From IMG/VR virus record IMGVR_UViG_3300027804_000001, positions 96,001-160,000 of that record: a stretch of 64,000 nucleotides of DNA, one strand, 5' to 3'. Numbering within the stretch: position 1 is the stretch's first letter; each line of letters begins with the position of its first letter. The stretch is from a virus. Taxonomy: Duplodnaviria; Caudoviricetes. The notes beneath the pieces are model-generated. The model worked only from the letters and a program-made list of their open reading frames with translations, had not been told where the DNA came from and ran no database searches. Shown here piece after piece: positions 4,235-18,811 of the stretch. A program made the position numbers and the translations under genes.

Positions 4235-4319
4235 GGGGGTATATAAGGGGGGATACGGGAGGGGGGAGGGGGTATATAGGGATAAGGGGGTGAGTATCAA
4301 TTAGTTAGGGGGTATAGGG
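4235..4319 (+). other. G-tract cluster with G-quadruplex potential at left border of island
   Basis: Nine runs of 3-6 G in 85 bp of an AT-rich genome. Confidence 0.7.
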
Positions 4320-4356
4320 CCATTCTTTATTCAAACCGGATCAACAGGGTGGTGAG

Positions 4357-4377
4357 TGTGGATAACTATGTGGATAA
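4357..4377 (-). promoter_or_regulatory. two tandem perfect DnaA-box sequences (TTATCCACA on minus strand)
   Basis: TGTGGATAA at 4357-4365 and 4369-4377. Confidence 0.6.
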
Positions 4378-4472
4378 CTTTAATAAAAAAAAATAAAAAA
4401 AATTTATCATTATACTTTTTTATATGGAATTAATTTCCGTACTTTGTTCTATCAATAACAATTAAACATTTA

Positions 4473-5015
4473 ATGATTATGAAAAATTCAATGAACACAA
4501 CCGAAGTAAACATTACAAAGAACGAGTTATTAACTTTGTTAATGTCAGTAGACAAACCGACCTTTACTAACATTCTTTACCAAATTAAAGTAAAGATGAA
4601 CAAGACCGACAACCCTTATTACGAGAGGGTATTCAAGACAACCAAAGGAAACTTTTTCATTGGGGGTACTTACGAGGATATGGTAAACGAGAGAATGAAG
4701 AAAGAGGGATTGACACCTAACTTTGTGAGTGAGGAAAACAATGTAGGGGAACACATTACAAAGTGTGTTCAGTTCAATGAGAAGTACAACAAACATTACC
4801 TACAATACTTTTCTTTTGAAAATTCAATTCATTCAACCGAATATGAATTTGAGGGAAGAAACATTGATAGAGAAATGTTCAAGTCCTTTGAGGTTAAGAA
4901 GTCCGAGAGTTCAAGACAACCCCAAGACAACAAACACCAAGTACAAAGTTTGACTATTGACAACATTAGGAAAATAACTTTGAACGGAACGAAGTACAAT
5001 GTAGTTGAGGGGTAA
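4473..5015 (+). CDS. hypothetical early protein (no Ala, no GpC)
   Basis: 180-aa ORF, first gene of island, followed by terminator. Confidence 0.85.
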   Translation: MIMKNSMNTTEVNITKNELLTLLMSVDKPTFTNILYQIKVKMNKTDNPYYERVFKTTKGNFFIGGTYEDMVNERMKKEGLTPNFVSEENNVGEHITKCVQFNEKYNKHYLQYFSFENSIHSTEYEFEGRNIDREMFKSFEVKKSESSRQPQDNKHQVQSLTIDNIRKITLNGTKYNVVEG

Positions 5016-5042
5016 CAACCCCTTTCCTTTGGAAACCAAAAG

Positions 5043-5071
5043 TCCCTTACGAGAGTAGGGGATTTTTTTTT
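5043..5071 (+). terminator. intrinsic terminator
   Basis: TCCCTTAC-GAGA-GTAGGGGA + T9. Confidence 0.85.
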
Positions 5072-5100
5072 GTCCAAGAACCCACCTTCGTCCCGTTGGG

Positions 5101-5286
5101 AATAGTGAACGGCCCCAAAAAAATACACACAAAAAAAATTCAAAAAAAATTTGGAGGATTTTTTTCCTTCCCGAATAATGAGGGGCCCGTATTACAAGAA
5201 AATGAAAAATTTACAACCTTGTATTTTTTTTGAATAATGACAGGCCCATGTATTTTTGTCATACACGAACTGAGCCGTTCATTAAT
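5101..5286. repeat. spacer 1: four copies of ATGAMYGGCY motif (3 forward, 1 reverse)
   Basis: 5101, 5174, 5233 (+); 5273 (-). Confidence 0.8.
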
Positions 5287-5327
5287 TTTCTCCGACAGAT
5301 GTCCCACAAAAAAAAATAAAATATTTT

Positions 5328-5358
5328 ATTGTGTAATGAAATAAATGTTATACATTTG
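5328..5358 (+). promoter_or_regulatory. Bacteroidota -33/-7 promoter
   Basis: TTG...TACATTTG. Confidence 0.75.
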
Positions 5359-5382
5359 TACTCAATTAAAAAATATAATAAA

Positions 5383-5631
5383 ATGAACAAAGAAAAAGTA
5401 ACCGAGATTGTCAATGAAGTTATTAACCAAAGGTTAGAACAACTAATGGAAGAAATGTCCACCAACGAGTTCGTGGAAATGATTTGTGATATGGTACACG
5501 ACCAAGTGGGTTTGGATTTGGAAGATGAGGACAAAGTAGAGGAAGTCCGAGAAATTATTGGTAGTAGGGTTATACCTTTACTGACCAAAGTGTGTGAGTA
5601 TGTCATTGGAGTAGACCTACCAAAGGACTAA
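5383..5631 (+). CDS. acidic hypothetical protein, 82 aa
   Basis: Start reassigned to MNKEKVT downstream of promoter. Confidence 0.85.
   Translation: MNKEKVTEIVNEVINQRLEQLMEEMSTNEFVEMICDMVHDQVGLDLEDEDKVEEVREIIGSRVIPLLTKVCEYVIGVDLPKD
5404..5441 (+). repeat. 38-bp exact direct repeat, copy 1 (copy 2 at 6488-6525)
   Basis: GAGATTGTCAATGAAGTTATTAACCAAAGGTTAGAACA. Confidence 0.95.
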
Positions 5632-5654
5632 ATAAAAGTTCCCCCACTTTTAGA

Positions 5655-5688
5655 TACCCTTACAAGAAATTGTAGGGGTATTTTTTTT
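5655..5688 (+). terminator. intrinsic terminator
   Basis: 11-bp stem, GAAA loop, T8. Confidence 0.85.
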
Positions 5689-5699
5689 GACCACCTGAT

Positions 5700-5780
5700 T
5701 TACCATCCGGGGTTCATGGAATAATGAATGGCTCCAATCGTATTACAGGCCGTTCACTATTCCCCATCCGGATCACGGTG
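5700..5780. repeat. spacer 2: inverted motif pair around GTATTACA; CCGG, CATG and GATC sites
   Basis: ATAATGAATGGCT 5721; GGCCGTTCACTATT 5748. Confidence 0.8.
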
Positions 5781-16697: not shown

Positions 16698-16786
16698 TGC
16701 TGTGCAGTCGAAGTGCACAGATCACACTGTCAATTAAGACTGGCTCAGGCCATTCATAATTCCCCATCGCCGGCACAGGATCAGGA
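16698..16786. repeat. spacer 14: GTGCAC, 2x GATC, GCCGGC, motif pair with TCAG core (reversed)
   Basis: Pair at 16733-16760. Confidence 0.85.
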
Positions 16787-16814
16787 AAAAAATTTAAAAA
16801 AACTTGTCGAAAAA

Positions 16815-16846
16815 TTTGGTAAAACAATATAATGGTTATATATTTG
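16815..16846 (+). promoter_or_regulatory. Bacteroidota -33/-7 promoter
   Basis: TTTG-N20-TATATTTG. Confidence 0.9.
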
Positions 16847-16872
16847 TACTCACAAAACAATTACTAATTAAC

Positions 16873-16895
16873 ACGGGGACAGGTTTACTGAACAA
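16873..16895 (+). repeat. 23-bp leader element, copy 2
   Basis: Identical to 15372-15394. Confidence 0.9.
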
Positions 16896-16903
16896 CAAAG
16901 ACA

Positions 16904-17464
16904 ATGGGATTAGATATGTATTTGAACAAGAAAACTTATGTACAGAATTGGGAACACCAAGACAAGGGTTTGAAACATACCATTTCAGTTAAGAGAGGTG
17001 GTAAAGTTCGTGATGATATTAAACCAGAAAAAATTACATACATTACTGAACAGATTGCTTATTGGAGAAAGTTCAACGCACTTCACGGGTGGTTTGTTAA
17101 TAATTGTGCGAACGGAGTTGATGAGTGTCAAGAAATTTATGTGTCGGGAGATAACTTCACAGAGTTGTTAAGTACACTCAAACAAGTTCAAGAAGTAATT
17201 AAAACTTCAAAGAAAGTTGTAAAGGTTGAGAAGGATTGGAACGATAACGATTATGAGGTAACCGTGTTTGAATGTGGGGATGAGATTAAAAATTTACTTC
17301 CACCAACGCAGGGTTTCTTTTTCGGTGGTTACGAAATTGATGACTACTACAAAGATGAGGTTGACCGCACCGTAGAAGTTATTCAAGAAATTGTTGATGA
17401 CATTAACTCCACAAAAGAGAATGGATTGTGGGGTGGTGATTACTACTACCAAGCTTCGTGGTAA
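16904..17464 (+). CDS. conserved phage hypothetical protein (MGLDMYL...YWRK type)
   Basis: MGLDMYL, IAYWRKFNALHGWFV, GVDEC. Confidence 0.85.
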   Translation: MGLDMYLNKKTYVQNWEHQDKGLKHTISVKRGGKVRDDIKPEKITYITEQIAYWRKFNALHGWFVNNCANGVDECQEIYVSGDNFTELLSTLKQVQEVIKTSKKVVKVEKDWNDNDYEVTVFECGDEIKNLLPPTQGFFFGGYEIDDYYKDEVDRTVEVIQEIVDDINSTKENGLWGGDYYYQASW

Positions 17465-17506
17465 ACAAATTTTAAATACTAATTTTAAATACTAAAAACA
17501 AAAACA

Positions 17507-17827
17507 ATGAGTAGACCATTTCTTTCCCTCAGTACACAAGGTAAAACATTTACCGCCAGTAGTTTGAAACCATACAAAGCTGATGGTGAAAAACATTGGA
17601 CAGTCACGGCAGATTTAAGGGCTCTCGAAACATTTGATAATTGTGAGAGTAACTACGATGTCGTTGACCGATTAAAAAACTTCAAAGTCCTAACTAAAAC
17701 AGCGACAGATGACAGCGAGTATTGTCAGTTCTTTGCGTACTTCAAAACGAAAACAGCAGCTGAGTCGTTCATAATAAGACTGGCTCAGTATGTGGAGTTT
17801 AGGAAAAATTTAATTAACTCACTTTAA
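17507..17827 (+). CDS. hypothetical protein
   Basis: 106-aa ORF in operon. Confidence 0.8.
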   Translation: MSRPFLSLSTQGKTFTASSLKPYKADGEKHWTVTADLRALETFDNCESNYDVVDRLKNFKVLTKTATDDSEYCQFFAYFKTKTAAESFIIRLAQYVEFRKNLINSL

Positions 17828-17837
17828 AACTAAAAAC

Positions 17838-18134
17838 ATGTCACAGTCAAGATTAAGTATGGCCTTTAAAGACCTTCGTAAGCACGGGTATTTTGCTCGT
17901 CAAAACTTTATGTGTTGCCAAAGTTGTGGATGGGCAGCAGTTCCTGATGGTAAAGAAAATAAAGTTGTCTTCTTCCATAACCAAGACAATGAACAAAGGA
18001 GAAATGGTCAACCACTTTACTTAGCGTGGTCTGGTGATGGGAATTTAATAAGTGATGTATTACGCGACCACGGCATGAAGGTTGATTGGAATGGTGATAC
18101 TTCAACAAGAATTTGTATTTCCAATTACGATTAA
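17838..18134 (+). CDS. DUF6891-like protein
   Basis: AFKDL...ARQNFMCCQSCG...FFHNQD pattern (recalled). Confidence 0.6.
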   Translation: MSQSRLSMAFKDLRKHGYFARQNFMCCQSCGWAAVPDGKENKVVFFHNQDNEQRRNGQPLYLAWSGDGNLISDVLRDHGMKVDWNGDTSTRICISNYD

Positions 18135-18135
18135 T

Positions 18136-18477
18136 ATGGAAAATAGAATTAAAGAATTACAAGAACTCATTTCTAAACACAAGAGAGAATTGTTATTCCT
18201 TAAAATGAACCAATTGTTAGATAGTCCTACAATTGATGATTTTAAATTTTGTAGGTACTCTCACAAAACTAACACCAAATATGGTGAGACCATTAGGTAT
18301 TACTATAGGATGGAGTTAAAGGTTCCAAAAGGTTTTCATGGAATTTGGGATACAGAAAAACAACGGTTTCTAATTTCAATTAGTGAGAAGGCATATAAAA
18401 TGCGTAACGAAAGTAAAATGTATTCCAAATTGTTGAGTCGTTTCAAAAACAAATTCAGTAAAAAATTTAAATTCTAA
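18136..18477 (+). CDS. hypothetical protein, probable paralog of 11299-11646
   Basis: Start MENRIKEL; LDSPTIDDFKF. Confidence 0.75.
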   Translation: MENRIKELQELISKHKRELLFLKMNQLLDSPTIDDFKFCRYSHKTNTKYGETIRYYYRMELKVPKGFHGIWDTEKQRFLISISEKAYKMRNESKMYSKLLSRFKNKFSKKFKF

Positions 18478-18479
18478 CT

Positions 18480-18755
18480 ATGTTAAAAACAACAACTCCT
18501 GATATTGTAATACCAGGTGAAAAGATTGACCAACTTGTTAAGAAGGTTATTACCAATGGGTTTAAAAAGAACAATAAACTCAAACAAAAGGACATTGAGT
18601 TCTATAACCGACAAGTTTACTTAAGTATTAAAGATGCTGTAAGTCGAGTTATGAAAGAAGAATATTGTTTTGAGGAAGTTAGGGATTTAATTTTTCAACA
18701 TTTGGTTTCCAAATATTCTTGGGACAAATTGCTTGAGATGGGAATTAAAGAATAA
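18480..18755 (+). CDS. hypothetical protein
   Basis: 91-aa ORF in operon. Confidence 0.75.
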   Translation: MLKTTTPDIVIPGEKIDQLVKKVITNGFKKNNKLKQKDIEFYNRQVYLSIKDAVSRVMKEEYCFEEVRDLIFQHLVSKYSWDKLLEMGIKE

Positions 18756-18779
18756 TATAATAAAATAAAGGGGATATTA

Positions 18780-18811
18780 TTTGGTAAAATGATATCCTCT
18801 TTTTAACTTTG
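18780..18811 (+). promoter_or_regulatory. Bacteroidota -33/-7 promoter
   Basis: TTTG-N20-TAACTTTG. Confidence 0.85.

Follow-up and report, generated by a model that had tools for sequence, protein, structure and literature searches.

Dam-methylation-dependent control sites are familiar from the GATCs upstream of Mu mom, from the TGATCA/G repeats of P1 pac and from IS10, and plasmid regulators of the ParB/KorB type are served by operator arrays at many promoters. Avoidance of nuclease target sites is known for restriction enzymes, and is stronger in phage DNA that enters the cell or is expressed first, as in the Autographiviridae leading region (PMC12455610, PMC10644984); for ribonucleases (RNases), the only known form is a slight under-representation in RNA phages, ACA in those of E. 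coli being at 0.76–0.83 of expectation (PMC12151602). Messages engineered to lack ACA are translated under MazF (PMC5408214), the homologues of which have varied di- and trinucleotide specificities (PMC13107127), and GCU is the site of MqsR (PMC8546651). Here we analyse a stretch of 64,000 nucleotides (nt), termed the window, which covers positions 96,001–160,000 of the IMG/VR virus record IMGVR_UViG_3300027804_000001 (Duplodnaviria; Caudoviricetes) and carries an island of small early genes at 4.3–18.8 kb. An initial annotation had described the spacers of this island as packed with palindromic, restriction-type sites, GATC in particular, and its genes as purged of them. We find that a strand-specific void of the trinucleotide ATC in the early transcripts, previously unnoted, underlies the partition of GATC.

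The contig is 180,831 bp long and estimated to be 54 % complete, the window has a G+C content of 32 %, and the record was found again in freshwater metagenomes of 16 studies. Within the island, 28 small genes, all on the + strand, are arranged in ∼14 cassettes, each running from an A-tract through a promoter and one to four genes to a hairpin-plus-T-run terminator. A pattern search returned the promoter form TTTG-N19-TAnnTTTG, ∼22 nt 5′ of the ATG, which we take to be of the Bacteroidota type; the promoters at 6100 and 8272 are identical in sequence. Terminator-like sites number 29 against 9.9 expected in a scan, nearly all of them on the + strand and behind genes, and a scan for sigma-70 promoters was uninformative (70 sites vs 69.5 expected). 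The island has the appearance of a series of early transcription units, each with its own promoter and terminator, in a giant phage of the freshwater, Bacteroidota type. Pfam families were assigned to island proteins for DUF932, DUF6915 and DUF6891, with a weak match to DUF1737, and the remaining proteins, which are the majority, had no match to a Pfam family; a megablast search of the island against deposited phages likewise returned no match.

Sense-strand ATC is absent from 27 of the 28 island genes (10,266 bp, in which 139 copies would be expected), both copies found in island coding sequence (CDS) lying within the single gene at 16368–16613, whereas the sense strand of these 27 genes has 255 copies of its complement, GAT. 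Sense-strand ATC occurs as expected in the rest of the genome (2279 vs 2264), and the void stops sharply at 18755, the gene at 18816–19205 and later ones having normal ATC. No other trinucleotide in the island is strand-asymmetric; the remaining depleted ones (ACG/CGT, GCA/TGC, AGC/GCT and CAG/CTG) are low on both strands. Selection on the word ATC itself, acting across codon borders, accounts for the void. Before a codon starting with C, the codons for Asn, Asp, His and Tyr appear as NAC:NAT at 60:0 in the island and at 252:395 elsewhere; Ser following a codon that ends in A is specified as AGY:TCN at 42:1, compared with 63:77 elsewhere; and island Ile codons comprise 171 ATT, 44 ATA and one ATC. 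This dependence across codon borders is not seen in the rest of the genome. Furthermore, in a natural variant of ∼95 % identity, two genes stay free of both ATC and GpC over 36 substitutions, and a paired change of GATAGA to GACCGA avoids a new GATC, although this test is under-powered, with no new ATC vs ∼2 expected among the 36 listed changes. Avoidance of Rho sites and of near-cognate start codons was considered and dropped, as the effect is confined to ATC and spares ATT and the other YC words.

The ATC void alone removes GATC, and every hexamer containing GATC, from the genes. All 16 GATCs in 4319–18800 (positions 4339, 5771, 7061, 8099, 8141, 8230, 9427, 10137, 11751, 11803, 12859, 12874, 15106, 15117, 16720 and 16779) are non-coding, and none occurs in 10,476 bp of CDS with curated gene starts, which bears out the count made by eye in the initial annotation; the copy at 10137 becomes coding only if a spurious upstream ATG is taken as the start of the open reading frame (ORF). 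The sites are indeed located between complete transcription units, from the terminator to the next promoter. The earlier estimate of roughly 2 kb of spacer was a fair one (∼1.9–2.5 kb of non-transcribed DNA within 4,006 bp of non-coding DNA), and every palindrome cited in the initial annotation is present where it was placed. GATC is also sparse in the rest of the window, as described, but at ∼one per 1.5 kb (27 copies in 22.3–64 kb) rather than one per 2 kb. Several null models were used, and expectations depend on the null model: the island CDS has no GATC vs 13–30 expected, the remaining CDS of the genome has 108 vs ∼320–470, and the intergenic DNA outside the island has four vs 20–28. GATC is depleted genome-wide, and its complete absence from island genes is unlikely even at the depleted genome-wide rate (P 0.0004–0.015). 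What did not stand is the reading of this absence as palindrome or restriction avoidance; the genes are without GATC on account of the loss of ATC from their sense strand, given which the order-2 model predicts only 0.6 GATC in island genes. Absence of a restriction site from genes can therefore be a by-product of an RNA-level constraint, and should be read with that caution.

The borders of the void were compared with those of the predicted transcripts. In 5′ leaders ATC occurs twice in 342 nt (6.3 expected) and between stop codon and terminator hairpin not at all in 360 nt (∼5 expected); the terminator hairpins (five in 401 nt, 5.6 expected) and the non-transcribed DNA (39 copies within 2500 nt, 45 expected) are both at chance level. 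As ATC is low in leaders, genes and the stop-to-hairpin segments but not in hairpins or spacers, the constraint tracks those parts of a transcript that are single-stranded. Contigs from metatranscriptomes that are identical in sequence to the window are contained in the predicted units (4471–5048, 8326–8903, 9581–10018, 11891–12756, 14246–15005 and 15355–16171), the last of them being present in two runs with identical ends, and DNA contigs, unlike these RNA contigs, continue into the spacers. The contigs support the transcription units without proving them, as spacer repeats also break assemblies. The 5′ end of the contig starting at 15355 coincides with the C of a leader ATC (15353–15355) of gene 15406, and may represent a start site, a cleavage site or an effect of assembly; contigs in other cassettes likewise begin 9–20 nt 3′ of the predicted start sites.

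A second property of the island genes is a purge of palindromes, which is separate from the ATC void, strand-symmetric and beyond what composition or codon usage accounts for. With amino-acid sequence and codon usage held fixed, 4-bp palindromes devoid of ATC have a median observed/expected ratio (O/E) of 0.40 in island CDS, compared with 1.01 for non-palindromes. The words affected include ACGT (two seen vs 25 expected), TCGA (11 vs 29), TGCA (eight vs 20), CTAG (four vs 14) and CATG (12 vs 22), and under the same synonymous null GTAC and CGCG showed no depletion in island CDS. For 6-bp palindromes, 26 were found in island CDS where 79 were expected, so that the purge is stronger in the early genes than in the CDS of the rest of the genome (O/E 0.33 vs 0.84), as the initial annotation had supposed; the ratio is 0.19 in the first half of the island CDS, 0.42 in the second half and 1.04 in the genes at 18.8–21.9 kb, with mirror-repeat controls at 1.07–1.23. 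Leaving out words with ATC or GpC gives 0.32 for 6-mers and 0.54 for 4-mers in the island, and 0.88 and 0.82, respectively, in the rest of the genome. The density of 6-bp palindromes is highest in the spacers, at 13.5 per kb, compared with 6.1 in the remaining CDS and 2.5 in island CDS. Site avoidance is not region-wide, as the spacers hold 16 GATC, seven GCGC, 17 CATG, 10 TGCA and seven CCGG; only ACGT (0), CTAG (0) and AGCT (1) are scarce in spacers as well as in genes. Separate again from the ATC void is a shortage of GpC in the first ten island genes (10 vs ∼81 expected, with alanine at 0–2 %), which constitutes an amino-acid-level constraint and is common to the first 18 or so genes of L023, the closest syntenic relative. 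Outside 4100–22300 of the window, a synonymous-shuffle null shows GATC, GCGC, AGCT and CTAG to be low in the CDS of the rest of the genome, where CCAG, CAGA, GCAG, CAGT, AGCA and GAGC are also low on the sense strand; several of these are common in the island spacers.

The spacers themselves are built to a common order: a T-run, a GC-rich flank of 25–35 nt, a core inverted repeat of the approximate form ATTATGAAYGGCC..GGCCRTTCATAAT, another flank, an A-tract and the promoter. They are 42 % G+C and strand-balanced, and can be described as a composite repeat, formed by the core inverted repeat and flank words such as CTGCAGATCA, GATCAC, ACATGT and TGCGCA. Relative to the rest of the genome they are enriched 114-fold for GCGC, 14-fold for GATC and 249-fold for TGCGCA. 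We masked the 28 half-sites of the main motif and compared the remainder with dinucleotide-preserving shuffles, whereupon GATC was the sole clear excess (15 vs 5.8, P=0.0005); CATG (15 vs 8.3, P=0.013) and GCGC (seven vs 3.9, P=0.04) were marginal, the excess of all G/C-containing 4-mer palindromes (61 vs 48, P=0.02) and of 6-mer palindromes (24 vs 16, P=0.026) was modest, and ACGT, CTAG and ATAT were absent. The claimed enrichment thus survives for GATC, whilst most of the resemblance to a polylinker vanishes, coming mostly from local composition and the main motif. GATC lies 8–14 nt outside a main-motif half-site in 10 of 16 cases (P about 5 × 10−7) and 3–6 nt before a promoter A-tract in five more; the GATC-containing 10-mer CTGCAGATCA has four copies vs 0.06 expected; and flanks differ between copies, yet the offset of GATC stays fixed. 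Tandem TGATC clusters are also found at 19.4–21.2 kb (19430–19438, 19697–19711, 20889 and 21124–21143), each 13–29 nt before a half-site. In this region we observed TGATC repeats 5–6 nt apart at 19425–19438, 19697–19711 and 21124–21143, just upstream of ATTATGACYGGCY half-sites, and the clusters at 19425–21143 are inside or between genes that permit ATC.

Homologous islands were collected with a search for the DUF6915 protein, which returned 80 IMG/VR loci; kinship among these loci inflates the apparent count of independent cases, and the records of the relatives are fragments. In several of them a different trinucleotide is missing. L049 (IMGVR_UViG_3300047678_000276) has no CCG vs 63 expected over 53 genes and 65 copies of CGG, its codons ending in CC before G number 0 of 1714 vs 48 of 3745 elsewhere, and all five CCG of the locus are intergenic. 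The L002 group has two GCT vs 82 expected and 25 AGC vs 102, while its spacers abound in GCT; the L062, L065, L035 and L040 groups have two CTC vs 30–38 with normal GAG; and L072 has two TCT vs 34. These voids are island-specific within the relatives' records, other regions of which are only mildly depleted (CCG 22 of 78 and 30 of 62; GCT 47 of 126 and 59 of 139). In L023 (21 shared genes, ∼54 % identity) ATC is normal. Voided words in the relatives' islands come back in the spacers. The cassette design is retained in relatives around different core repeats, often with no GATC whatsoever, and the core palindrome of the present island had no exact match when IMG/VR was scanned for it. GATC is lacking altogether from the homologous locus of L001 and from that of L002; the two related phage records G002 (L002, L089 and L090) and G004 (L001, L091 and L092) have 0–2 GATC per 20-kb stretch read, compared with about 60–70 expected. 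The relatives' islands are palindrome-poor too, at O/E 0.28–0.51 vs 0.63–0.95 in other parts of the same phages, and the ratio of intergenic to CDS palindrome density over 53 homologous loci has a median of 0.95–0.97, with the present island at the top (2.7–2.8). The partition with site-rich spacers is peculiar to this phage among the 53 loci; comparison of the sequences indicates that the purge of the genes is family-wide and that site-rich spacers are not a design principle.

At a probability of roughly 0.58, we favour the explanation that the ATC void of the early transcripts, the palindrome purge and the composite-repeat spacers together account for the partition, with selection bearing on the transcription units and not on the spacers. 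The early mRNAs would have to survive a single-strand-specific, trinucleotide-specific endoribonuclease of the MazF or MqsR type that is active at the very start of infection, before phage counter-measures are made. A single AUC site would kill a message, and we propose that the void is all-or-none because one cut inactivates the message. Island products would then neutralise the enzyme, which would be why later genes need no void. Such an enzyme is more likely to be host- than phage-encoded, as a phage enzyme could not switch specificity without recoding ∼30 genes at once. The presence of the word 255 times on the other strand means that it is neither a double-strand DNA target nor an instance of restriction avoidance. 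Tolerance of ATC in hairpins fits enzymes that cut only single-stranded RNA, and the differing words of related phages fit the varied specificities of MazF-type enzymes. The palindrome purge would represent an intensified restriction avoidance in the DNA for which expression is needed earliest. Non-transcribed spacers are free of the ATC constraint and are filled here by the GC-rich composite repeat, such that their 'restriction sites' would be parts of a putative protein-binding or regulatory element, which the D12 and C5 methyltransferases of the phage (Table 1) may methylate. The wider proposition, that in this family of freshwater giant phages each early island has been recoded to lack one messenger trinucleotide (AUC here; CCG, GCU, CUC and perhaps UCU in relatives) as the footprint of an arms race with trinucleotide-specific endoribonucleases, we would give an even chance.

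Several points weigh against this explanation. We know of no AUC-specific endoribonuclease, and none was found in a review of toxin RNase specificities, in a global E. coli analysis or in a screen of 186 enzymes. Of four RNase families sought in the phage record, which is 54 % complete, PF02452 and PF00545 are absent, and PF15723 and PF09412 had no match in a search whose controls were silent. The long leader of gene 15406 and the gene at 16368–16613 contain ATC; a process acting on the template DNA strand would yield the same void boundaries; and gene calling beyond the island and in the relatives relied on a heuristic, greedy choice of ORFs. The explanation also does not account for why the purge spares the spacers for GATC, GCGC, CATG, TGCA and CCGG and not for ACGT, CTAG and AGCT.

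A different view of the spacer GATCs (and perhaps of GCGC and GGCC), which we regard as possible but doubtful, is that they are methylation marks set by the phage's own Dam-class and C5 enzymes. Methylation marks read by a phage protein were among the roles suggested in the initial annotation. Their state would be read by a protein that binds the core repeat, or by RNA polymerase at the adjacent promoter, so that transcription would differ between DNA that arrives fully methylated and DNA that has just been replicated, providing a timer for the early genes. The fixed spacing of GATC from half-sites and A-tracts is in keeping with this, as are the similar arrangement of the TGATC clusters at 19.4–21.2 kb and the precedents of Mu mom, the P1 pac site and IS10. 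The D12 enzyme, moreover, is present here and was not found in the five relatives' records searched, all of them fragments, which include L001 and L002, the two that are without GATC at the locus. Membership of the D12 class does not, however, give GATC specificity, and the enzyme has neither a solved relative by sequence nor an NCBIfam name; the ATC void of the genes is also left unaddressed. On the sequence as it stands, self-methylation of spacer GATC, GCGC or GGCC coupled to a methylation-read switch may nonetheless be a reasonable idea.

The same spacers could instead be a young, GC-rich family of mobile or concertedly evolving repeats that has not yet been purged, in which case the sites would be passengers. 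Near-identical spacer modules (the promoters at 6100 and 8272, and the 10-mer present four times), a spacer GC content unusually high compared with relatives' spacers and the restriction of the partition to this phage all point in that direction. Divergence of the flanks while the GATC offset holds argues for selection, however, and the element is retained both in the natural variant and in the samples of 16 studies, making this origin improbable in our judgement.

With respect to the void, a strand-specific constraint on DNA rather than RNA is about equally improbable. Either the template strand must lack 5′-GAT-3′ as the target of a defence that modifies single-stranded DNA, or the sense strand lacks the start trinucleotide of a primase, priming thereby being confined to the spacers. 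Boundaries that run from start site to terminator suit a template-strand process equally well, and primase trinucleotides vary between phages, as do the voided words between relatives. Against both versions, an all-or-none void in each gene is better suited to messages killed by one cut than to priming or to a density of lesions, the copies on the complementary strand exclude double-strand recognition, and we know of no single-strand DNA defence with an ATC or GAT motif.

We consider it very unlikely that the spacers offer sacrificial or decoy sites, at which host restriction enzymes would cut or linger between cassettes while the early genes stay expressible, a role that the initial annotation had put forward. 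The sites do fall between a terminator and the promoter that follows it, GCGC and GATC, which the genome as a whole avoids most, are concentrated there, and the genes are purged of palindromes. No restriction enzyme, however, explains a gene void of GATC that is in fact strand-specific avoidance of ATC; GATC alone, and not many types of site, is clearly above local expectation; and its fixed offsets within a repeated element, including repeated 10-mers, mean that it is not independent of other motifs. Across the 52 homologous loci that share this architecture, spacers and genes are equally poor in palindromes; the genome is broken even by a cut that falls in a spacer; and the phage has methyltransferases of its own. 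Finally, an origin of the void by mutation alone, through a cytosine deaminase that prefers a particular context and attacks the displaced sense strand, would be in line with the somewhat low TC dinucleotide of island CDS (O/E 0.72), but is ruled out by the codon-context test, in which the void is reached through NAT to NAC and AGY for Ser and not by C-to-T changes, with TTC, CTC and GTC not depleted and a zero count even at non-synonymous positions.

Additional features of the island were recorded. The segment 15166–15300 has a full promoter (15166–15197) followed by two small hairpins and no ORF, directly before the promoter of gene 15406, and may possibly be a small RNA unit. Genes 15406 and 16904 are the only two in the island with long leaders, and an identical 23-nt leader element, ACGGGGACAGGTTTACTGAACAA, lies 5′ of each (15372–15394 and 16873–16895). 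DnaA-box-like TGTGGATAA occurs in two copies at the left border of the island (4357–4377, + strand) and in one inverted copy at the right border (22464–22472, − strand), with four copies in the whole window vs 1.3 expected, and a G-run tract is located at 4140–4330. In many relatives the DUF6915 protein (13236–13634) has 88–92 % identity, compared with only ∼55 % for their other island proteins, its constraint being unusually strong. Coordinates of the island, its spacers and the methyltransferase genes are given in Table 1.

Table 1. Positions in the window of the early-gene block, the non-transcribed spacers, the flanking genes and the phage methyltransferase genes
Feature	Coordinates	Strand	Remarks
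Block of 28 early genes in ∼14 promoter–terminator cassettes, palindrome-poor	4473..18755	+	27 genes without sense-strand ATC; first ten (4473–9353) nearly GpC-free
Sole ATC-containing island gene (2 copies)	16368..16613	+	Own atypical promoter; its spacer without GATC
Next eight genes	18816..21939	+	ATC and palindrome content normal
Non-transcribed spacer, terminator T-run to −33 box	5068..5228		GC-rich flanks, core half-sites
Non-transcribed spacer	5684..5799		GATC 5771: 13 nt outside half-site, 6 nt before A-tract
Non-transcribed spacer	6578..6809		GTCGAC, GTGCGCAC, ATGCAT; no GATC
Non-transcribed spacer	7034..7198		GATC 7061, 11 nt before half-site
Non-transcribed spacer	8038..8271		GATC 8099, 8141, 8230; TGCGCA; CTGCAGATCA at 8225
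Non-transcribed spacer	9404..9514		CTGCAGATCA at 9422, 11 nt before core palindrome
Non-transcribed spacer	10064..10177		GATC 10137, 11 nt outside minus-strand half-site
Non-transcribed spacer	11720..11843		GATC 11751 8 nt before half-site; GATC 11803 inside CTGCAGATCA, 6 nt before A-tract
Non-transcribed spacer	12790..12910		GATC 12859, 12874; second 4 nt before A-tract
Non-transcribed spacer	15032..15165		GCGCATGCGC, TGATCA (15105), GGATCC (15116)
Non-transcribed spacer	16692..16814		GTGCAC, GCCGGC, GATC 16720 and 16779
D12-class (Dam family) N6-adenine DNA methyltransferase gene	43365..44429	−	Match E 3e-40
C5 cytosine DNA methyltransferase gene	56685..57653	−	Nearest solved relatives M.HaeIII and M.HhaI, catalytic half only

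Set against the described systems, the island shares with ParB/KorB arrays the repetition of one palindromic site upstream of many early-gene promoters, and the product of gene 15406–16152 may be a ParB-like candidate, judged by eye only (a DGQHR motif; no Pfam or NCBIfam family); the sequence of the site is unrelated, however, and the likeness would concern the main motif and not the palindromic sites. As in Mu mom, P1 pac and IS10, GATC and tandem TGATC stand at fixed positions by a putative protein-binding repeat, upstream of promoters, and a Dam-class gene is present. Like the first-step-transfer DNA of T5/BF23 and the leading region of Autographiviridae, the island has palindromes depleted on both strands and more so than elsewhere. 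It differs from phage restriction avoidance in that GATC, GCGC, CATG, TGCA and CCGG are purged from transcription units only and not from the DNA between them, and in that its largest signal, ATC, is strand-specific and non-palindromic.

The likeness to escape from MazF or MqsR is that the word is missing from the RNA strand only, all-or-none per message, and tolerated in hairpins, and that it varies among related phages, the word of one relative group, GCU, being the MqsR site. If a ribonuclease is the cause, the early genes would record the specificity of a host RNA-cutting defence, such that defences and the timing of counter-defence become directly testable, and the void would provide a simple sequence signature for immediate-early genes of uncultured phages; RNase specificities might then be predicted from phage sequence alone. 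Known natural cases of such escape are mild (about 0.8, in RNA phages) and the others are engineered, whereas here 27 genes of a DNA phage are fully recoded, and the trinucleotide void is complete and strand-specific over a whole early-gene set, with a word that changes between related phages. If this explanation is true, DNA phages would here provide the first 'interferase-proof' gene sets known from nature.

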